Shown here: positions 808-35,565 of the stretch, in pieces | Layout of the letters: every line of letters begins with the position of its first letter | Numbering within the stretch: position 1 is the stretch's first letter | Source: a virus | Strand: one strand, 5' to 3' | IMG/VR virus record: IMGVR_UViG_3300003860_000007 | Span: 1-64,000 of that record | Length of the DNA: 64,000 nucleotides | The notes under the pieces: model-generated | What the model was told of the DNA's origin: nothing | The model's input: the letters and a program-made list of their open reading frames with translations, nothing else | The model's database searches: none | Position numbers and translations under genes: made by a program

Positions 808-930
808 ATGATACTGAGAAAATTTAGAAGAATAAATTGCCGCGCCATTGCGGCTATTTCCCCTTATTATTATTTGGCGGGGAAATTCAGAATCGAACCG
901 ATGTAATTCTTACAGTTACTACAGTATTTG

Positions 931-8574: not shown

Positions 8575-9225
8575 TTAAATATTTCCTATAAAAGAAAGTG
8601 TAAGAGAATCTACATAATAAACTTTAGCTTGTGTAAAAGCTTCTATAGTTTCTGACAAATCTGAATTTATTGATTTACACGCATCTTCAATAACATATGT
8701 ATTAAAACCTTCCATTGCTGCATCTATTGCAGTTTCTTTCACACAATAATCTAGAGCTAAACCACATACGTAAACTTCAACTACATTTCTTTCATTAAGA
8801 AAATCTTGAAGTTTTTTAGGAGCATCTGGATTTATTATTTTTGATCTATCAAATGCACTATAAACATGATTATTCCTTTCCATGCCTTTTTTAAAGATAT
8901 AAAAATCTTTTTTGCATTTTGATAAATTCAGATCTGGATGAAATGAAGCACCTAATGTATCTGCTACACAATGATCAGGCCAAAGAATATCTTTTTCTCC
9001 ATTTTCTCTTACGTAACTATCGTAAACAGAAGCTCCGGGATGTTGTGAGGCGAAAGCATCCATTTCTGGATCATGCCAATCTTGTGTAAATATAACTAAA
9101 TCAAATCTTTCAAGGAGATCATTAACTACGGGTACAATTTTGTCTCCATCTGGTACTGCTAGTGATCCTCCAGGGCAAAAATCTCTTTGCAAATCGATCA
9201 CTATTAATGCTTTTTTCTTTATCAT
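8575..9225 (-). CDS. pncA: Nicotinamidase / isochorismatase-family hydrolase (PncA-like)
   Basis: IVIDLQRDFCPGGSLAV and the later Cys-containing segment match the PncA/isochorismatase fold signature. Confidence 0.75.
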   Translation of the reverse strand: MIKKKALIVIDLQRDFCPGGSLAVPDGDKIVPVVNDLLERFDLVIFTQDWHDPEMDAFASQHPGASVYDSYVRENGEKDILWPDHCVADTLGASFHPDLNLSKCKKDFYIFKKGMERNNHVYSAFDRSKIINPDAPKKLQDFLNERNVVEVYVCGLALDYCVKETAIDAAMEGFNTYVIEDACKSINSDLSETIEAFTQAKVYYVDSLTLSFIGNI

Positions 9226-9381
9226 ATCATCTTATAGTTTGAATTTCATATTCATCATATCCATCTCTTGATTCATCTGAATCTATACATACAATTTCTA
9301 ATCCAAATGATTGTAAAGCGTCTGATATATTGTCTACAATTTCATCAGCTCTATCATCATAATCTACTCTAAATTTTGATT

Positions 9382-10317
9382 TCATAATTCTTCCTTTTTA
9401 TTTTTAACATATCTATTGTATATACTATTTTCATTTTCTATTATATCGTGTCTATATATATTGACAGGATTATTTCTTTTGAATTGAGATTTTAAATGTC
9501 GTTGAATGACAGAGTGTTGACGCATTTTATTAATTTCATCCATATATACTGCATTAACAGTTGGTGAATGTTTTTCAATAAAGTCTAAATATTCTTTAAG
9601 TATTCTATCAACTTCTTTATAACCATCTCTAGAATTTCCTGTCCAGTCTGGCATTATTTGTCCAAGATCTCCAAGATTTGTAACTCCAAGGCCATCAGTT
9701 GCAAGTGCAGTTATCGTATTTATTATTGTACTTCCTGCTTCATAATTTCCAGCATATTCATTCATAGTTAACCATTCTGCCATATCATATACTTCTGTTT
9801 TCCAAAGATTTTGTATCATACCATAATCACCTACATCACCATGAAGAGTCCAAAAACCAAGAAGAAATTCTGTATAATTATCAGTAGAAAGAACTATTCC
9901 ACGATGATATGAAGCTAAATCATACAAATAAATCATACGCAGTCTTGCTTTAAGATTTCCATTACGTATACGACTTGATGAACCTTCAGGATTAGGCGCA
10001 TGAAACAGCATATTAGATTCCATTTTGGAATACATAAAATTATATTCTTCTTCAACGCTATGCTCTAAGAATTTTGTACAAAATACTTTTCCTGTTAATT
10101 TGGCTCTTTCTAATTCTTCTGGTTGATTTGAACTTACTGGCAAACTTCTTCCTATAAGTGGAATATTTAATTCATCACAAACTGGTCTAGCAAGTGCTGC
10201 GCAAAGACAACTATCTATTCCACCTGAAATCCCTATAATAAGAGACTTTATATTATTGTTTGTAATATACAGACTTAATTCTTTTCGAATATTCGATACT
10301 GCTATTTGATAATTCAT
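9382..10317 (-). CDS. nadE: NH3-dependent NAD+ synthetase (NadE)
   Basis: PP-loop IGISGGIDSCL (SGGxDS); overall length and layout match NadE. Confidence 0.8.
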   Translation of the reverse strand: MNYQIAVSNIRKELSLYITNNNIKSLIIGISGGIDSCLCAALARPVCDELNIPLIGRSLPVSSNQPEELERAKLTGKVFCTKFLEHSVEEEYNFMYSKMESNMLFHAPNPEGSSSRIRNGNLKARLRMIYLYDLASYHRGIVLSTDNYTEFLLGFWTLHGDVGDYGMIQNLWKTEVYDMAEWLTMNEYAGNYEAGSTIINTITALATDGLGVTNLGDLGQIMPDWTGNSRDGYKEVDRILKEYLDFIEKHSPTVNAVYMDEINKMRQHSVIQRHLKSQFKRNNPVNIYRHDIIENENSIYNRYVKNKKEEL

Positions 10318-10325
10318 ATTATTTT

Positions 10326-10559
10326 TTATTTACGTATTATCCAAAATAATAACCAAAGTATAGTCGTGGGTATCCAAATTGCCCAAGTAAATATTGAAAA
10401 TTTTTCACTATTTTTTGCCCAACATAAAAATGTTAAAATAGCAGAAGTAGCACTCATTAAAAATAATACACCTGGATAAATAGGGATAAAAAGATTTCCT
10501 ACTATTAAAATTACAGTAGTAATTATTAAAGCCATTGTGAAATTTTCAAAAATTTTCAT
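10326..10559 (-). CDS. Small integral membrane protein
   Basis: Two hydrophobic helices. Confidence 0.35.
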   Translation of the reverse strand: MKIFENFTMALIITTVILIVGNLFIPIYPGVLFLMSATSAILTFLCWAKNSEKFSIFTWAIWIPTTILWLLFWIIRK

Positions 10560-10586
10560 ATTTATTTGTGTTTAATTATTAAAAAA

Positions 10587-11090
10587 TTATAAATCATTTT
10601 CTTTGTGTTTACACCAAGTTAGATATTCATCTTGATCTCTTATCCATTGTAATAATTCTGGATCAGTAACTTGTTCATGTTCTATTTTAGACCATAATTC
10701 GTTATCTCTTTCATTTTTATCATATTGATTAACGAAATATATTTTCTTAATTCCCGCTGCTATTATATTTTTCAAACATTCACTGCAAGGTTCAAGTATA
10801 CAATAAAGTTCTGCTTCTTCAATAGCAATTCCATGTTTGGCTGCAAAATTAATAGCATTCATTTCAGCATGAACCTCATATTTTTTAGACCAATTATGAT
10901 GGGCTTCTCTATCAGTTAGAAAATTATAATTAGGAAAATGATCACAACAATTTTCAAATCCTTTAGGTGTCCCATTTATTCCCGTGGAAATAATTCTTCT
11001 ATCATGAACAATAAGAGCTCCCACTTGTCTTGAGACACATTTAGATTCTTGTCCAAGTAAATATGCTGTTTTAAGAAAGAAATGTTTCAT
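10587..11090 (-). CDS. dCMP / cytidine deaminase (T4 Cd-like)
   Basis: HAEMNAI...PCSECLKNI is the zinc-binding H-A-E ... PC-x-x-C deaminase signature. Confidence 0.8.
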   Translation of the reverse strand: MKHFFLKTAYLLGQESKCVSRQVGALIVHDRRIISTGINGTPKGFENCCDHFPNYNFLTDREAHHNWSKKYEVHAEMNAINFAAKHGIAIEEAELYCILEPCSECLKNIIAAGIKKIYFVNQYDKNERDNELWSKIEHEQVTDPELLQWIRDQDEYLTWCKHKENDL

Positions 11091-11338
11091 TTGAATTCTG
11101 CTTCTAAATTTCTTAAATGTTCATTAGTATATTCGTATTCTATTTTATCTTCATAATCATAAAGATATATTTTATCTTTACATACTTTTGTTATTTTACA
11201 CTTAAAATTTTTCCAAGAATAACAATTATATAAATTATCTACAACTCCTGACCAATTATATTTTTTACCTTCAACTAGTTGAAAACCATCATGAGTTACA
11301 AATATCTTTTTGGGTTTTTTCTTAAATGGATTTTTCAT
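11087..11338 (-). CDS. Hypothetical protein
   Basis: ORF track only. Confidence 0.3.
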   Translation of the reverse strand: MKNPFKKKPKKIFVTHDGFQLVEGKKYNWSGVVDNLYNCYSWKNFKCKITKVCKDKIYLYDYEDKIEYEYTNEHLRNLEAEFK

Positions 11339-11538
11339 GGTCTTAAGCTTTTTTGTTCATTTTCTTCTCCATCGCCATCCATTAAAGTAGCAATCATGTT
11401 AATAGATTCAAGAATAGATTGTCTTAACATTTTAATCCAAGTTTCATAATCCTCTACTTTTGTGATATTAGGACGAATTGTTACGTTTTTTAGATTTTCA
11501 CAAACAGTTTTAAGCACTTTCTTTTCTAACTTTTCCAT
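11335..11538 (-). CDS. Hypothetical protein
   Basis: ORF track only. Confidence 0.3.
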   Translation of the reverse strand: MEKLEKKVLKTVCENLKNVTIRPNITKVEDYETWIKMLRQSILESINMIATLMDGDGEENEQKSLRP

Positions 11539-11656
11539 ATTGTTATTTGTTTATTATAATGCTAATATATAAAAAATATGAATACGATGTGATTTTTTGT
11601 TGTTAATTTTTTGTTAAAAAAGCAAAAGGGAGAATTTCTTCTCCCTTTCTATTCTA

Positions 11657-13360
11657 TTAGATTTCAATCTTGTTGATTTCATCTATGATTACCTGTGGGT
11701 TTATTTCAACCTGAGGAATCTTTTCGTAGATGTCTTGACCGTAGCCGTAAAGACGGAATACTCTGTTTCCACCCTTTATAGGAGCAGTTGCTGCATATCC
11801 GCATACGTTGATGATGTATACGTATGGTGTTCCGAACTTCTTGCAGTATCCTGCATAAGAATTTTCTACATTGCTGTATCCATCCTGTTCGTCAGAGATG
11901 ATAAGAATTCTATCGTACTGCTTGTTAGTTCTTTCAAACAACTTGAAGCAAGAACCGAAATCTGTACCGTGACCGCAACATCCGTTGTAGGACATGAACT
12001 TCTGCTTTAACGTATTGATTGAATCGATTGGGTTCCAACCTACAATCTGTTCAGCAGTAGAAGCGAAATGGTATACATCTCCACCAACACCCTTTGCAAA
12101 TGTTGCAGCTACAAGTGCAGCCTTGTCAGCTGGCTTCTTATTGATAGCCTTCTTAGGGTCACCATTAAGATAAATGCTGGAGTATCCACCTTTCATAGAA
12201 CCTGATGTATCGAATACAACTGCTGTTCTACCTTCTGGAAGCAAGTTCTGAAGGTTTGGAATTGACAATTCATATGCTGTTGAAAGTGCCTTTGCAACCT
12301 TAGCCAACTGTGTTCCGTTGAATTCAAGTGTCATCACTTCAAGAGCAATGTCAATCTGGTGTGGCCATACAAGAGACTTACGGATGAATTCCTTTTCAAC
12401 AAGTAAATCGCACGCCTTGTCAAGAAGAACAGTATCATTGGTCTTAAGAATGTTACGTACGTTACGAAGTAATGCAAGGTACCCAATCTTCTTAGTTTCA
12501 ATAAGTTCCTTGTAGTTTTCAGTCTTAGCTTCATTAAGTTCAACAGTTGCCTGTTCCTTAGTGATAGTTCCAGCCTTAACCTTTTCAGCTACAACCTTTC
12601 CTGCTTCAGTATTCTTATCTTCAACAGTGTTGAACTGCTTAAGAACGCCAAGAACAAGAGCCTTAAGAGTTGGAAGACCAACATTACCATTTTCAGGTGC
12701 ATCTAAAAGATATTCATCCTTTTCGAACTTAGTACCCTTAACAGCCTTCAAGTATTCAGCTTCTGATACAAATACTGTTCCATTTATAGGTGTTTCATGT
12801 GGGTGCACTAAGTTAACGATGTCAACAAGGCTTACACCACGTGACTTCATCTGGTACTTAGCTAACTGATATGCATCTGCATGTTCAATTGCATCCTTGA
12901 ATCCCTTCTTAATAGCGTTTGGAATTGGTGCTTCTACACCATTCTTAGCCTGGTAACATGCAAGAATTTCTGCCATGTCATCAAGACGATAAACGATACC
13001 TCCACGATTTTCCTTACGGTCTCTCTTAGAGAAGAATCTCTTAGCGATTTCAGAACCTGCAAGGTGAGGGATTAATTCTACTGCACCGTAATGAGTAACA
13101 GAACGCTGTCCAAATACTGTACGTGCATAGATAAGTGCCTTAGCTGCGAATAATGCATTCTTCTGCGCAACTCTATTGATAACTTCACGGAATCTCTTTT
13201 CACGTTCAGTTTCCTTTTCGTAATAAGTATTATCTAAACCAGTAGATAAAATACCAATTAATTCATGTTCTGGCTTCTGTGTTAAACCAGTTCCACCCTG
13301 TAAAGTTACAGTTTCCTTAACTTCTGGGTTGCTTACTCTCTTTTCATTGTACTTTGACAT
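11657..13360 (-). CDS. Ro60/Rsr-like TROVE-domain protein with C-terminal vWA/MIDAS domain
   Basis: N-terminal region (TGLDNTYY..., ALFAAKALIYARTVFGQRS) parallels the Ro60 TROVE region. C-terminal VVFDTSGSM is a DxSxS MIDAS motif. The gene is visibly more GC-rich than its neighbours and is preceded by AAAGGAGGT. Confidence 0.6.
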   Translation of the reverse strand: MSKYNEKRVSNPEVKETVTLQGGTGLTQKPEHELIGILSTGLDNTYYEKETEREKRFREVINRVAQKNALFAAKALIYARTVFGQRSVTHYGAVELIPHLAGSEIAKRFFSKRDRKENRGGIVYRLDDMAEILACYQAKNGVEAPIPNAIKKGFKDAIEHADAYQLAKYQMKSRGVSLVDIVNLVHPHETPINGTVFVSEAEYLKAVKGTKFEKDEYLLDAPENGNVGLPTLKALVLGVLKQFNTVEDKNTEAGKVVAEKVKAGTITKEQATVELNEAKTENYKELIETKKIGYLALLRNVRNILKTNDTVLLDKACDLLVEKEFIRKSLVWPHQIDIALEVMTLEFNGTQLAKVAKALSTAYELSIPNLQNLLPEGRTAVVFDTSGSMKGGYSSIYLNGDPKKAINKKPADKAALVAATFAKGVGGDVYHFASTAEQIVGWNPIDSINTLKQKFMSYNGCCGHGTDFGSCFKLFERTNKQYDRILIISDEQDGYSNVENSYAGYCKKFGTPYVYIINVCGYAATAPIKGGNRVFRLYGYGQDIYEKIPQVEINPQVIIDEINKIEI

Positions 13361-13404
13361 AGTGTACCTCCTTTTTTTACTATTAGTTTATACTAAAGAA
13401 TTAA

Positions 13405-13635
13405 TTAACATATTACTATAAAATGTTTTCTGTTTTCATTATCTTCACACTTAACAGGCATGAATCTTTTATCTTCATAATCTTCTCTTGCAACTTGCAT
13501 CCAACCATTTTCGGTTCCTGCTGGATTGTCTCTATTTGCTACCTCAAGTATTTCTTCATCAGTAGCGTCCCATTCTGCGCAAACTTGCATATAACATATG
13601 CCTATCATCGGCTGTGAAACTATTACTCTTTCCAT
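13405..13635 (-). CDS. Hypothetical acidic protein
   Basis: ORF track only; GC-richer like the Rsr gene. Confidence 0.3.
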   Translation of the reverse strand: MERVIVSQPMIGICYMQVCAEWDATDEEILEVANRDNPAGTENGWMQVAREDYEDKRFMPVKCEDNENRKHFIVIC

Positions 13636-13656
13636 ATTAAATTTTATTAAAAATAA

Positions 13657-13693
13657 AAAAGCCTGAGTAATTTTTTACGATTTCTCAGGCTTT
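13657..13693. terminator. Hairpin terminator-like (AAAGCCTGAG-loop-CTCAGGCTTT)
   Basis: 10-bp perfect inverted repeat with A and T runs. Confidence 0.5.
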
Positions 13694-13784
13694 GCAATAT
13701 AATCATAAAGTTCAAGTTATGAGCTATGCAAATAAAAGTTGAGAAATCTGAGAAGAGTTTAAATTGAAAATTCTAATAAAGATC

Positions 13785-13813
13785 GTTCGATGTAACTCTT
13801 TCTCTTACTACAA
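13785..13813. repeat. Dispersed R repeat copy
   Basis: gttcgatgtaactctttctcttactacaa. Confidence 0.45.
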
Positions 13814-13913
13814 TCAATTATATTATTATATATAAAGTCAAAAACTCTTTGTTTTTAGACTTAGTGTTAAAATTTTGTTAAAGATTTATTTATTAAAATT
13901 ATAGTGTAAATAT

Positions 13914-13956
13914 AATAAAAATTCTTGACAGAAAAAACTTTTTATGTTAAAATTTT
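13914..13956 (-). promoter_or_regulatory. Copy of conserved promoter-like motif
   Basis: gtgtaaatataataaaaattcttgacagaaaaaactttttatg. Confidence 0.45.
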
Positions 13957-13957
13957 G

Positions 13958-14551
13958 TTAAAATAATGAAATATTTTTGGTACGATGTAATAATCCATAT
14001 ATTATAAATGCATGACCCATCTTTTTATTTGGATCTGTAATAACATCCATAAGAGATTTATTCATCTTAACATGATTGTATCCATCAAAATCTATCAAAT
14101 AAATATCTCGTTTTTCAGTTTTATATAATTCTAAAAGTTGCTTATATGCTTCGCTTTGTAATAAAGCTCTTTTATAAATAGGAATGTAAATTTTAATTCT
14201 TGCTTGAATATATGATAATTTTTCTCCATCCCAATAACTATATAAAGGTTTTGCATCTCTACCCATAGGATATCTGTGAGCAAAATTATCATTCCATATT
14301 TTTTCAGCCCATTCAAAATATGCTGGAGAAGGATCGCCTTTTTCATCTACAAATTCTTTATATACCTTTGATGCTTGCCAGGCGTTTTCTACATTCTTTG
14401 CATAATATCCTTTATACAAATGCCCGCCCGGAAGAACAAAAGGAGATAAACCTTGAGTCCAATTTCCTGAACCTGCTCTTGAAGTTGTATTAATTACTAC
14501 TGCGCCCTCAGGTATCTCATACCTTTTAGCGTATGATTCTACGTATAACAT
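13958..14551 (-). CDS. NADAR-domain (YbiA-like) protein
   Basis: ENAWQASKVY and PMGRDAKPLYSYWDG parallel the EHYFQAQKF and ARMGRDRSKPL motifs of YbiA/NADAR. Confidence 0.5.
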   Translation of the reverse strand: MLYVESYAKRYEIPEGAVVINTTSRAGSGNWTQGLSPFVLPGGHLYKGYYAKNVENAWQASKVYKEFVDEKGDPSPAYFEWAEKIWNDNFAHRYPMGRDAKPLYSYWDGEKLSYIQARIKIYIPIYKRALLQSEAYKQLLELYKTEKRDIYLIDFDGYNHVKMNKSLMDVITDPNKKMGHAFIIYGLLHRTKNISLF

Positions 14552-14553
14552 AG

Positions 14554-14594
14554 TGTAAATATAATAAAAAATTCTGAATTGAAAATATTTATGT
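14554..14594 (-). promoter_or_regulatory. Copy of conserved promoter-like motif; ends at the ATG of 13958..14551
   Basis: gtgtaaatataataaaaaattctgaattgaaaatatttatg. Confidence 0.45.
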
Positions 14595-14742
14595 GTTAAA
14601 ATTTTGTTAAAATGATGAAACTAAACTTTATAGTTAATATATAAATTATATAACCTTGTACTTGGGGGTTTAGTGTTTGAAAGAACATTCGAGTTGGAGA
14701 AATACCAACGAATAAATTCTCAAATATAAAATAACATAAGGA

Positions 14743-15612
14743 ATGAAAATAAATTACTCAACTCAAAGGGTAACTGTGCCCACTGTATACGTGACCAAAG
14801 GTCGCCAAAGAGTAAAACAGTATGATAACACAATCTATCTTAAAAATGGAGACGAATTCGAAATAGAATTATTCAATCCATTACAATCTAAAGTTTTAGC
14901 GAAAATTGAACTCAACGGAAAGTATCTTGGTGCTGGAATAGTTTTACGTCCAGGTGAAAGAATGTTTCTTGAAAGATACATCGAAGAGTCCAGAAAATTC
15001 ATGTTTCAAACATATGAAGTTGATGGTGGTGATACTAATGTTCAAGAAGCTATTAAACTTAATGGAGTATTAGAGGTTAAATTTTATAAAGAAACTGCAC
15101 CTTCACAACCATATTACAGAAGTTCTACTATAACTTACACAACCAATCCAAGTTGGACAGTAACACCTACTTATACACATTATAATACAACAATAGGATA
15201 TTCTGGTGTAAAAAGTTCAAAAGGAGACATAGAAAATCCTGGTGTTGTTTTTGGTAATGCTACTACTTTATCATGTTCTGTGGATAATACAAAATCATAT
15301 GTAGATAGTATGCCCATTGGAGGTGAAGGATTAGGATTTGCGGGATGCGCTGATTTTTCAAGAGACTTTGCTCCACAAGAACAAACAATAGAAACTGGAA
15401 GAGTAGAAAAAGGTTCAAAATCAGATCAAGAATTTTCTACAGATAATACGCAATTTGATGTTTATTATAGTTGGAGAAGTGTTTGGAAAATTCTTCCAGA
15501 ATCTCAAAAGCCACTTATGTCTGAAGACTTAAAAGTATTTTGTACAAATTGTGGAGCTAAAAGAAAAAAATCTTCTCATAAATTTTGCCCAAACTGTGGC
15601 AACCAATTTTAA
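14743..15612 (+). CDS. Hypothetical protein with C-terminal zinc ribbon
   Basis: C-terminal CTNCGAKRKKSSHKFCPNCG; TAAGGA Shine-Dalgarno-like sequence upstream. Confidence 0.5.
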   Translation: MKINYSTQRVTVPTVYVTKGRQRVKQYDNTIYLKNGDEFEIELFNPLQSKVLAKIELNGKYLGAGIVLRPGERMFLERYIEESRKFMFQTYEVDGGDTNVQEAIKLNGVLEVKFYKETAPSQPYYRSSTITYTTNPSWTVTPTYTHYNTTIGYSGVKSSKGDIENPGVVFGNATTLSCSVDNTKSYVDSMPIGGEGLGFAGCADFSRDFAPQEQTIETGRVEKGSKSDQEFSTDNTQFDVYYSWRSVWKILPESQKPLMSEDLKVFCTNCGAKRKKSSHKFCPNCGNQF

Positions 15613-16381: not shown

Positions 16382-16458
16382 TGGTTGTCCCGGCAAGGCT
16401 CGAACTTGAAGTCTTCAGAATCAAAATCTGACGTGTTAACCGATTACACCACGGGACA
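16382..16458 (-). tRNA. tRNA-Gln (anticodon UUG), CCA encoded
   Basis: Acceptor TGTCCCG/CGGGACA, anticodon arm TCAGA-TTTTGAT-TCTGA, T-arm CAAG-TTCGAGC-CTTG, 3' ACCA. Confidence 0.65.
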
Positions 16459-17100
16459 ATTTATAAAATCTAATAATTTTTCTATTGTAAAATATTTCAA
16501 TTCATAATATGGTATTCTATATATTCTCCATCCTTTAGATCTTAAAAAATTATCTTTTTTCATATCATGTTCAACCCTTTTTAATCCGTTAGTAAAATGA
16601 GGTTCTCCATCATATTCAATAGCAATTTTTTGATCAACAAAAGCAAAATCTATAAAATAAGGATAAATTGGATATTCATTTATAATTGAATATTTTTCAT
16701 AAAAACTATTATCTTTAAGCATTTTATTTATTATGCTTTCTCCTTTACTCATCAATCTTTTATGTCTATTTGTAAAAGTTGAAATATTATTTTCATCAGA
16801 TAAATAGTCAAAACGTTTTTGTCTTAAAATTTCTTTAGATTGTTCGTTATGATGTTTATCCTTGAATGCGTTAGTTATGTTTCCTTCTTTATAATTTTGT
16901 TTTAATGTGTTTGATTGTTGTAAAATAGACGCATTATTATGTTTTGTTTTTCCTTTTGCCCAGTGTATTTTTTCACCAGTTTTCAATGTTTTTCCCGTAT
17001 CATGTGCTTTACCTTCTTCTGTATGAGTCCTCCAAATATGGCCTTTAATTCCATATTTATTATATTCTTTTTCGCAATAAGGACATTTCATACAATACAT
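16444..17100 (-). CDS. Zinc-finger + PD-(D/E)xK (DUF559/Vsr-like) nuclease-fold protein; putative homing endonuclease
   Basis: N-terminal CPYCEKEY...HIWRTH. C-terminal YFIDFAFVDQKIAIEYDGEPH...KDNFLRSKGWRIYRI is a D...E.D restriction-endonuclease-like core. Confidence 0.55.
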   Translation of the reverse strand: MYCMKCPYCEKEYNKYGIKGHIWRTHTEEGKAHDTGKTLKTGEKIHWAKGKTKHNNASILQQSNTLKQNYKEGNITNAFKDKHHNEQSKEILRQKRFDYLSDENNISTFTNRHKRLMSKGESIINKMLKDNSFYEKYSIINEYPIYPYFIDFAFVDQKIAIEYDGEPHFTNGLKRVEHDMKKDNFLRSKGWRIYRIPYYELKYFTIEKLLDFINCPVV

Positions 17101-25105: not shown

Positions 25106-25764
25106 TTTATATTAAATATTTTTTCATAATTTTGAATATCTGATAAAAATATCATTTCAATATTATTATAATTACTCAAAATATATCTCATTTTCTTTTT
25201 ATCTTCTTCTTCATATCTTCCTTTAACTTCAAAGAACTTTTTTAAATTTGGACACCAAAAATCTGGATAATATGTGTGAATTTCCCCGAATTCATTTGTC
25301 CAAGATAAACCATCAGAAAAAGGCTTTATCCAATCTTTATCTATAATATTTAAAATAACTGCGAAACGTTTTTCATAGGTTCCTTGTACTTTTATCTTTG
25401 TTCCATCAGGTTTTATAATTTCATACCATTTACATTTTCCGCCAGTTATCCATCCTTTATTATTTATAGATATTTTTCTTTTTGTTTCTAAATCTCTTGG
25501 ACCATTTTTTCTTCCTTTCAATTTAGAAGGTCTTCCTTTTTTAGTATCCCAAACTCTATTTTCAGAATGAATAGCCCAAATATGAAATTTTACGCCTCTA
25601 GGATTATCATATTCTTTTTCACATATTGGACATTTATGAAAACCATTAGGTTGTTTATAAATATTAACTTTATTTTGTCTATTACCACATTTTTCATAAT
25701 GTTTCTTAAAATTTGATAAACTTATTTCTTTATTACATTTATCACAAATTCTTTTATTTACCAT
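25099..25764 (-). CDS. Zinc-finger + PD-(D/E)xK-fold nuclease-like protein; paralog of the truncated gene at 1..647
   Basis: CDKCNKEIS...KKHYEKCG, CPICEKEY...HIWAIH, C-terminal YYPDFWCPNLKKFFEVKG; sits inside the tRNA cluster. Confidence 0.5.
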   Translation of the reverse strand: MVNKRICDKCNKEISLSNFKKHYEKCGNRQNKVNIYKQPNGFHKCPICEKEYDNPRGVKFHIWAIHSENRVWDTKKGRPSKLKGRKNGPRDLETKRKISINNKGWITGGKCKWYEIIKPDGTKIKVQGTYEKRFAVILNIIDKDWIKPFSDGLSWTNEFGEIHTYYPDFWCPNLKKFFEVKGRYEEEDKKKMRYILSNYNNIEMIFLSDIQNYEKIFNIKL

Positions 25765-25888
25765 ATTTTTATTTTATATATTCATATAGTAATTCTTTAA
25801 TTTACTACTTAATGTAACACTTGTTCATTACTACATTGCTGAGAAAGCCGAAAAGTGTGTAATTAGCTTTTAACTTTTCCCCCATTTG

Positions 25889-25971
25889 AGACCGAGAAGG
25901 GATTCGAACCCTTGTGAGCTTTCGCTAATGGTTTTGCAGACCATCCTTTTCAACCACTCAAGCACTCAGTC
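25889..25971 (-). tRNA. Type-II (Ser-like) tRNA with anticodon GCA (Cys codons)
   Basis: Acceptor GACTGAG/CTCGGTC, Ser-type D-arm CTT-GAGTGGTTGAA-AAG, anticodon arm ATGGT-CTGCAAA-ACCAT (perfect 5-bp stem), about 14-nt variable arm TAGCGAAAGCTCAC, T-arm AAGGG-TTCGAAT-CCCTT. Confidence 0.45.
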
Positions 25972-35455: not shown

Positions 35456-35565
35456 AGTTTATTAAGTTTTTATTCTAGAGACAGGATTTCCTAGAGAGTT
35501 AAAGGTATTAATTATATGGTAGCTAAGAAAAAAGTTTTGCATTTTTTGTTAAAATTTTGTTAATG

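Follow-up and report, generated by a model that had tools for sequence, protein, structure and literature searches.

The DNA analysed here is a stretch of 64,000 nt from a virus (positions 1 to 64,000 of IMG/VR virus record IMGVR_UViG_3300003860_000007), referred to below as the window. On its minus strand it carries rsr, the gene for an orthologue of the protein Ro60/Rsr, and, upstream of rsr on the same strand, the gene for a small structured RNA. Particles of Ro60 and Y RNA are conserved from bacteria to humans, their roles are poorly known outside a few model bacteria, and the finding of Y RNAs by bioinformatics has relied on the YrlA model. The GC content of the window is uniformly low (~29 %). 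There are 16 tRNA genes on its minus strand, one of them with a CUA anticodon, and it thus has the appearance of a section of a large phage genome. A protein identical to its Rsr is recorded on contigs of up to 405 kb, and the best 120 Rsr homologues (62-83 % identical) are on metagenomic contigs, many of 50-170 kb. A megablast search with 11 kb of the window found no match among the GenBank phages, and an exact search for the Rsr protein in a contig index was likewise negative.

The rsr gene and the small RNA gene upstream of it

The rsr gene (11657-13360, minus strand) encodes a protein of 567 aa, with a TROVE HEAT-repeat ring and a vWA domain that includes the metal ion-dependent adhesion site, or MIDAS (D384-x-S386-x-S388). 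A preliminary description, made from the letters of the window, had identified it as a Ro60/TROVE orthologue with a MIDAS, and the searches agree. The Pfam TROVE model PF05731 matches above its cut-off of 23 (36.4 bits, E 4.7e-9), spanning aa 45-214 only, and PHROG 850 ('RNA-binding protein') matches over the full length (E 2e-28). An alignment of 16 orthologues shows no variation at the MIDAS residues D384, S386 and S388, and DTSGSM at 384-389 aligns to DVSGSM of the Ro60 of phage phiLo (PDB 9KOP/9L5Y; E 5e-14). When an AlphaFold2 model of the protein (mean confidence score pLDDT 77) was compared with the PDB using Foldseek, ranks 1-13 were all Ro60/Rsr (E 2e-14 to 2e-9, TM 0.5-0.68), from phiLo, Xenopus, human and Deinococcus (9kop, 9l5y, 1yvp, 2nvo, 9nen), and vWA domains came next. 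The product is a full-length, genuine Ro60/Rsr orthologue. Directly past the rsr stop codon there is an intrinsic-terminator-like hairpin with a T run (11624-11649, minus strand).

The window was compared with 66 related rsr loci taken from viral contigs (designated L followed by a number). Part of the 13636-13957 spacer is conserved in these loci, upstream of rsr and on its strand. The conserved part belongs to an RNA gene of ~170 nt (~13650-13817, minus strand), in which a promoter-like box is followed by an 83-nt bulged stem-loop, another hairpin and an intrinsic terminator. The stem-loop (13735-13817, minus strand) is the conserved, Y-like domain, and gives the best match in the window to R1, the covariance model of this module (81 bits, E ~5e-17). 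Its lower helix, P1, pairs UUG-U-AG with CU-CAA around a bulged U, and is followed by an internal loop (5' UAA, 3' AGAUUU), a 10-bp helix, P2, and a conserved apical sequence, UUACAUCGAACG, after which the 3' side is A-rich. In the family as a whole, P1 is UUG-U-RG with CYCAA, again with a bulged U, and the asymmetric internal loop has 5' UAA and 3' ANNUUU. The sequence of P2 varies freely while its pairing is kept, for example GAGAAAGAGUU/AACUCUUCUC versus AAUUUGCGU/ACGCAAAUU. The apical loop, variable and A-rich, has the invariant motif UUAC(U/A)UCG at its 5' side.

According to the fold, the 3' part of the gene (13650-13731, minus strand) comprises the second hairpin (~13693-13731), the terminator stem (13660-13691) and a U run (13650-13659). 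All of 17 homologous RNAs end in a G+C-rich hairpin whose stems co-vary and whose position is kept, and a T run follows in nearly all of them. The second hairpin is found in most of the 17, at the same position and with a different sequence. The promoter-like region (13825-13881, minus strand) consists of a TATATATAAT box (13825-13834), which lies ~8 nt before the RNA domain and is kept at the same distance in eight related loci (L034, L030, L008, L028, L009, L069, L017 and L011), and a copy of the repeat TTAACAAAATTTTAACA (13865-13881), which is conserved as well. With up to 3 mismatches, this repeat occurs 16 times in the window, versus 4.5 expected. Fourteen copies are on the minus strand, intergenic and upstream of genes. 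Besides the one in the RNA gene region, copies are at 13945-13961, 14594-14610 and 35547-35563, and the other 12 are degenerate. The repeat is probably a phage-specific promoter or regulator-binding element.

The preliminary description had suggested 13640-13900 and 11540-11660 as places to look for a Y RNA, and had noted a hairpin terminator and a repeat copy in the first of these. Both of those features are there (the G+C-rich hairpin with its T run at ~13650-13691, and the TTAACAAAATTTTAACA copy), as is a structured Y-type RNA gene. The second place yielded nothing: the spacer 11539-11656 holds the rsr terminator hairpin and a degenerate promoter-like repeat copy (11601-11617), with no further conserved element and no R1 match. 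The GTTCGAT sequence that had been read as T-loop-like is present on the plus strand, but the RNA is on the minus strand, where the complement, AUCGAAC, holds the conserved UCG as part of a CGAA-like motif, and the T-loop reading was rejected. The lead was thus right in place and wrong in strand and motif reading. A small protein gene in the spacer was also considered and rejected, as no ORF (open reading frame) there exceeds 23 aa and the substitutions are compensatory and not codon-like.

The structure was examined in two alignments. In the first, made with MAFFT from 17 sequences, pairs form in 89.9 % of cells and 10 of the 15 pairs show compensatory changes. None of 500 shuffles reached the observed pairing, and slid partners gave 39-56 %. 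For 58 model-aligned matches, an alignment that was fitted to R1 and hence leans towards it, the figures are 91.8 % of cells, 13 of 15 pairs compensatory (165 such cells), 0/500 shuffles and 34-51 % for slid partners. RNAalifold recovers P1, P2 and the terminator. G-U pairs are seen only on the rsr strand, and the RNA strand is therefore that of rsr. The thermodynamic signal counts against the RNA reading to some extent, as it is weak (single-sequence folding z -1.8) and not decisive, so that the case for an RNA rests on covariation. On that evidence, a conserved RNA with the structure given above is encoded on the minus strand of this spacer.

Copies next to rsr and within tRNA arrays

From the end of the conserved domain to the start of rsr, on the same strand, the distance is 375 nt, and from the T run of the terminator it is 290 nt. 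This linkage is general. R1 matches were found in 38/38 non-redundant rsr loci, and of the 54 matches in these loci 52 share the strand of rsr and lie upstream of it, while 43 (80 %) are no more than 1.5 kb away. Copies often stand in tandem, in arrays of 2-5. Between the RNA gene and rsr in the window is an ORF of 76 aa (ORF76; 13405-13635, minus strand), an accessory insert with no Pfam or PHROG match that, among the related loci, is found only in L009 and L034.

Two further strong copies of the module are found in the window, and they flank tRNA-Gln(CUG) with spacers of 0-3 nt. One (25025-25108, minus strand; R1 73 bits, E 5e-15) ends 3 nt before the tRNA and the other (24871-24946, minus strand; 60 bits, E 6e-12) follows it directly. 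In the latter, P1 is ACUG-U-AG/CU-CAGU, which is a compensatory change when compared with the copy next to rsr. A weaker, longer copy lies between tRNA-Lys and tRNA-Gly (810-928, minus strand; 33 bits, E 2e-4, falling to 18.5 bits, E 0.09, with the R1 filters off). Its fold has the basal stem and UUACAUCG around three hairpins, in the order T-like, hairpin, D-like.

A tRNA-like sequence (24786-24866, minus strand) was also noted 4 nt after the copy at 24871-24946. It combines an acceptor-type stem of 7 bp and a perfect T arm (GGUUCGAAUCC) with an unusual D region and an anticodon region that is enlarged. ARAGORN makes no call here, and the Rfam tRNA model gives 19 bits (E 0.08 in a 191-nt search).

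The presence of the module in tRNA arrays is not peculiar to the window. A pattern scan of viral contigs matched at least 117 stretches, and 78 newly fetched loci were re-scored with R1. About 45 of the 78 were confirmed and the rest were taken as chance matches; the raw scan alone is unreliable. The R1-filtered scan comprises at least 45 loci with at least 74 matches, and rsr is present in 23 of these loci. Copies were found beside tRNAs, and also 0.25-2 kb upstream of Rsr genes that are only 30-35 % identical and have few or no tRNAs nearby (L082, L100, L125 and L132). The RNA is therefore found in two settings, next to rsr and within tRNA arrays, and its link with rsr is independent of the tRNA arrays, though rsr itself usually lies in such arrays.

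These distributions bear on two alternatives to an RNA that serves Rsr. The stem-loop could be a tRNA-array element, such as a processing signal, a spacer module or the partner of some other protein, that comes to lie near rsr because both share an island, without binding Rsr. This would account for 39/74 of the added confirmed matches being within 15 nt of a same-strand tRNA (among the matches listed) and for three of the four window copies flanking tRNAs. Furthermore, rsr is embedded in tRNA or transfer-messenger RNA (tmRNA) arrays in most relatives, so that the proximity of RNA and rsr could be partly indirect. However, no tRNA is closer than 2.5 kb to the copy beside rsr in the window, and this copy comes with a promoter-like box and a terminator of its own. 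In addition, a copy accompanies every one of the 38 rsr loci, mostly at short distance upstream, and copies stand beside very divergent rsr genes with no tRNA nearby (L100, L125 and L132). Finally, members of the family with tRNA-like inserts, described below, resemble YrlA, a known partner of Rsr. We consider this alternative unlikely.

Alternatively, the upstream element could be a cis-acting leader, a protein- or ligand-responsive attenuator of ORF76 and rsr, possibly one through which Rsr regulates itself. It is on the same strand and directly upstream, with its intrinsic terminator ~14 nt before the next start codon, and in L008 and L017 the element abuts rsr. We regard a role of this kind as quite improbable, since identical modules are found inside tRNA arrays far from any rsr and tandem arrays of 2-5 copies occur. 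Moreover, ORF76 or homing-endonuclease-like ORFs separate the terminator from rsr in many relatives, and rsr keeps a conserved leader of its own.

Relation to known Y RNAs

The Rfam models Y_RNA (RF00019) and YrlA (RF02553), with which the preliminary description had expected a Y RNA to be found, did not detect it. Searches of the whole window, 10500-15000, 790-945 and 24690-24880, at the gathering threshold and at permissive E, returned tRNAs alone, and the RNA surfaced only by comparison with related loci. It has been reported that >250 bacteria and phages encode Y RNAs next to Ro60, with a GNCGAA motif that is the proposed Rsr contact (Chen et al. 2014, PMC4201824). The rsr-adjacent copy in the window reads AUCGAACG, which agrees with 7/8 positions of GNCGAA(N)G.

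Relatives of the window copies provide a bridge to YrlA. The same stem encloses a D-arm, an anticodon-like arm and a T-arm in L056 3717-3851, L043 4393-4525 and L057 3638-3761, and in these three both ARAGORN and Rfam call a tRNA inside. In L057 3005-3166, L056 3860-3997 and L063 3815-3954 it encloses a T-arm, a hairpin and a D-arm, which is the permuted order of YrlA. The YrlA model, with a gathering score of 69 bits, scores below threshold on two elements that carry the R1 stem, L057 3030-3157 (39 bits, E 4.6e-5 in a search of 62 kb and 1.4e-7 locally) and L056 3866-3996 (31 bits, E 0.009). The positive controls, each just upstream of a Ro gene, gave similar values, namely 43 bits (E 3.2e-6) for Streptomyces phage Quantum and 31.5 bits (E 0.0068) for Gordonia phage Rabbitrun. 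When L057 is aligned to the YrlA model, the 'ggCgaA' of the consensus coincides with the 'UUCGAA' of the invariant UUACUUCG element. R1 found nothing in the actinophage controls, and the basal module is therefore lineage-specific.

The family shares with YrlA (RF02553; PMC4201824) a position beside rsr on the same strand, often in more than one copy, a stem topped by a (G/U)NCGAA-like element, of which UCG alone is invariant in the family, and, in the relatives just described, the permuted arms. It differs from YrlA in its basal module (P1 with the bulged U, the UAA/ANNUUU loop, P2 and UUACWUCG), which is confined to this phage group, and in that many copies sit inside tRNA arrays. The closest solved relative of Rsr, by sequence and by fold, is the Ro60 of Thermus phage phiLo (PDB 9KOP, 9L5Y), though the proteins are only ~20 % identical. 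Upstream of its Ro60 gene, phiLo has two Yrl RNAs with a CGAA motif that bind Ro60 and the host PNPase (PMC12135203). Yrl1 and Yrl2 have a stem-bulge-stem form, and their arrangement recalls the tandem upstream copies found here. However, the phiLo RNAs were chosen by the CGAA motif and single-sequence folding (PMC12135203), whereas the present family is defined by covariation across dozens of loci. Strict CGAA is not conserved in it, and an association with tRNA arrays has not been described for phiLo.

Metazoan Y RNAs have a short helix with one bulged pyrimidine in the 5' strand, an asymmetric internal loop, and a variable upper stem and loop. The bulged helix and asymmetric loop of the phage RNA have a comparable shape. 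In sequence the two are dissimilar (GGUCCGA versus UUGURGUAAG), Rfam RF00019 gives no match, the ends do not form the helix, and transcription here would be of bacterial type, with an intrinsic terminator or in a tRNA-array context. Bacteriophage T4 offers a different parallel, in that its 'species 1 and 2' RNAs are stable, structured RNAs, not tRNAs, interleaved with the tRNA genes of the phage, and are presumably freed by the enzymes that process tRNAs. To our knowledge, T4 has no Rsr.

The RNA upstream of rsr is most likely a new, lineage-specific subfamily of Y RNAs. In its minimal forms, which include all strong window copies, it most likely consists of a docking stem and a small loop, with a tRNA-like domain added in the elaborated forms. 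Several observations weigh against this assignment. None of the four window copies matches RF00019 or RF02553, even at E <=10 in the short searches; the copy at 810-928 in particular has no YrlA match at that level and does not score with tRNA models. The other three (13735-13817, 25025-25108 and 24871-24946) have a small variable loop only, with no T arm or D arm, and the copy that is next to rsr thus lacks a tRNA-like domain. The 5' and 3' ends of the RNA are not paired as in classical Y RNAs, and further hairpins follow the conserved stem. Finally, literal CGAA is present in only 12/58 family members, UCG alone being invariant.

If the assignment is correct, the RNA gene at ~13650-13817 would be transcribed from its own promoter-like box and stop at its own intrinsic terminator, while the three tRNA-array copies could be freed from tRNA-array transcripts by RNase P and 3' processing, as their spacing of 0-5 nt suggests. 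By analogy with Rsr/YrlA and phiLo, Rsr would bind the RNA, and the bulged stem with UUAC(U/A)UCG at the mouth of the apical loop may be its docking site. The variable apical part, small here and a T/D-arm domain in some relatives, might recruit or gate a partner, for instance a 3'-5' exoribonuclease of the host (PNPase). If the systems of Deinococcus, Salmonella and phiLo are a guide, the RNA might then tether or gate Rsr and the exoribonuclease on structured RNA, and the ribonucleoprotein might handle structured or misfolded RNAs (tRNA precursors, rRNA) during infection.

What is gained is a covariation-backed Y-like RNA family that current Rfam models miss, together with a search model and dozens of natural variants. 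The family also brings a testable hypothesis for the docking site (bulged U, UAA/UUU loop, UACUUCG). The copies within phage tRNA arrays link Rsr to the phage translation machinery, which suggests why giant phages with many tRNAs keep Rsr.

Translation, origin and neighbourhood of rsr

The preliminary description had judged rsr to be visibly richer in G+C than the genes around it and to have a canonical Shine-Dalgarno (SD) sequence, unlike most genes in the window, and both observations were borne out when the 77 non-overlapping ORFs of the window were compared. The GC content of rsr is 0.397 versus a mean of 0.281 (standard deviation 0.036; z 3.2) and its GC3, the GC content at third codon positions, is 0.331 versus 0.139 (z 4.7). 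It ranks first of the 77 in both, and the excess is well beyond chance. The SD sequence, AAGGAGGT (13366-13373), is 5 nt ahead of the ATG and is the sole match of at least 6 nt to the anti-SD complement among the 77 ORFs, 73 of which have no 4-nt match.

From these features it had been concluded that rsr was acquired recently by horizontal transfer from a GC-richer donor, and as the strongest GC and GC3 outlier and the sole SD-led ORF in the window it does invite that conclusion. GIY-YIG-like homing endonuclease ORFs beside rsr in several relatives could, in addition, move alleles between phages. However, a GC-rich donor should raise G and C at all synonymous sites, and the excess is in particular codons and not a general shift. 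Relative to the other ORFs, rsr prefers AAG for Lys (98 % versus 12 %), CAG for Gln (95 % versus 15 %), TTC for Phe (80 % versus 11 %), TAC for Tyr (68 % versus 9 %), ATC for Ile (47 % versus 5 %) and CGT for Arg (57 % versus 15 %), and GGT is likewise raised. Four-fold G/C-ending codons are not raised; GCC, GTC, CCC, CTC and CTG are each at 0 %, as is GAG for Glu, and ACC and GGC are at 3-5 %.

The same pattern, with AAG, CAG, TTC and TAC raised relative to the flanking genes and GAG and the four-fold G/C-ending codons not, is found along with the GC3 excess in rsr orthologues of the close clade, in which the proteins are 59-83 % identical. In this clade the bias is independent of genome background, and it fades in a more distant clade. 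Synonymous sites are saturated at such protein divergence and should long since differ, so that the shared bias would imply continuing selection. The gene order around rsr is kept in related loci, as detailed below. A search of bacteria using one genome per species found no close donor, only short, mis-binned contigs of metagenome-assembled genomes with homologues 49-68 % identical. The nearest homologues on true bacterial chromosomes (Herpetosiphon-type Rsr) have ~21 % identity, and close Rsr homologues are all on phage-like contigs. A recent acquisition is not supported by this evidence, which already largely refutes it, and we consider it very improbable indeed. We note that a high GC content does not in itself mark an outlier gene of an AT-rich phage as foreign.

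The leader of rsr is also distinctive. It occupies 44 nt (13361-13404, minus strand) and contains a motif made up of TTCTTT, a hairpin (UUAGU/ACUAA) and then AATAGTAAA (13377-13400), followed by the SD sequence. The leader is 95-97 % identical where Rsr is only 66-73 % identical, and the hairpin arms, read by eye, co-vary among relatives (UUAGU/ACUAA, UUGAGC/GCUCAA and UUGGGU/ACCAA). The motif is unique within the window, and in part of the family the SD sequence is inserted after it. The leader may be a cis-regulatory element specific to rsr and, together with the codon set, it suggests that rsr is translated under rules other than those for the rest of the genome. We infer that the GC3, the codon set and the SD sequence reflect selection on how or when this one gene is translated and not a recent import.

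Taken together, we think it probable that the window is from a huge AT-rich phage with an RNA and translation island that encodes Ro60/Rsr and a lineage-specific Y-like RNA family, and in which the codons of rsr have been selected and not imported. The tRNA-array element, the cis-acting attenuator and horizontal transfer are less well supported. More tentatively, and at present we would doubt it as a whole, huge phages of this kind may have an undescribed class of Y RNA with its own docking module and with minimal and tRNA-like forms, produced both from a gene beside rsr and from tRNA arrays, with rsr translated under a different regime. If so, the particle of Rsr and Y RNA would be integral to phage tRNA biogenesis or quality control, and rsr, with its SD sequence, leader hairpin and AAG/CAG/NNC codons, might for example be translated ahead of the build-up of phage tRNAs or by a special set of ribosomes.

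The order RNA, rsr, dCMP deaminase, NadE (NAD synthetase), nicotinamidase is the one kept in related loci. In the window the three genes downstream of rsr (8575-11090, minus strand) encode dCMP deaminase, NadE-like and nicotinamidase/isochorismatase-like proteins, with functions judged from the translations and synteny. An NAD-salvage gene is also near the Ro gene of the Gordonia phage control. No RNA-repair partner such as RtcB or PNPase was found among the ORFs neighbouring rsr, the products of which are nucleases of DUF559 type or resembling endonuclease I, a papain-like protease and a flotillin/NfeD pair.

ORFs with a GIY-YIG-like N-terminus (YVYITxNxxNGKxYVGSH) are directly before or after rsr in many relatives, and some are between the RNA terminator and rsr. 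Examples are L001 3295-3975, L002 3376-3993, L005 1992-2774, L007 3365-3976 and 5719-6318 (minus strand), and L003 5753-6415 (minus strand). They look like homing endonucleases that target the highly conserved rsr. Nuclease-like ORFs are also scattered among the tRNA genes of the window, all on the minus strand. The one at 23406-24209 matches DUF559, that at 25099-25764 matches phage endonuclease I weakly, and that at 16444-17100 has a Vsr-type look, judged from reading the translation alone. They resemble mobile endonuclease genes.

The spacer at 14552-14742, between the divergent genes for a DUF6939 protein and a 289-aa zinc-ribbon ORF, is 76-79 % identical over ~195 nt in L030, L009, L034 and L008. 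This is the level of conservation of coding sequence. One promoter repeat lies inside, and the spacer could hold another element.

The tRNA with a CUA anticodon (18769-18842, minus strand) is an amber suppressor, labelled 'Pyl' by ARAGORN. A CUA-anticodon tRNA is also near rsr in 13 related loci (L013, L014, L015, L017, L019, L029, L034, L039, L041, L042, L062, L067 and L071), and L047 has a tRNA with a UUA anticodon. These tRNAs suggest stop-codon recoding in part of this phage group, and, where recoding occurs, the use of the standard code could have divided ORFs into pieces. Three predicted tRNAs on the minus strand are overlong, namely Pro (81 nt, 24269-24349), Cys (84 nt, 25888-25971) and a second Leu(CAA) (89 nt, 21177-21265), which has its anticodon at position 38. 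Their Rfam scores are lower (43-57 bits), and they may contain insertions or be tRNA-like RNAs. In distant relatives, phage tmRNA genes are in the same tRNA islands as rsr (L051 685-1081, L063 2049-2430 and L064 7470-7743) and, with the tRNAs around rsr, form a dense cluster of translation-related RNAs.

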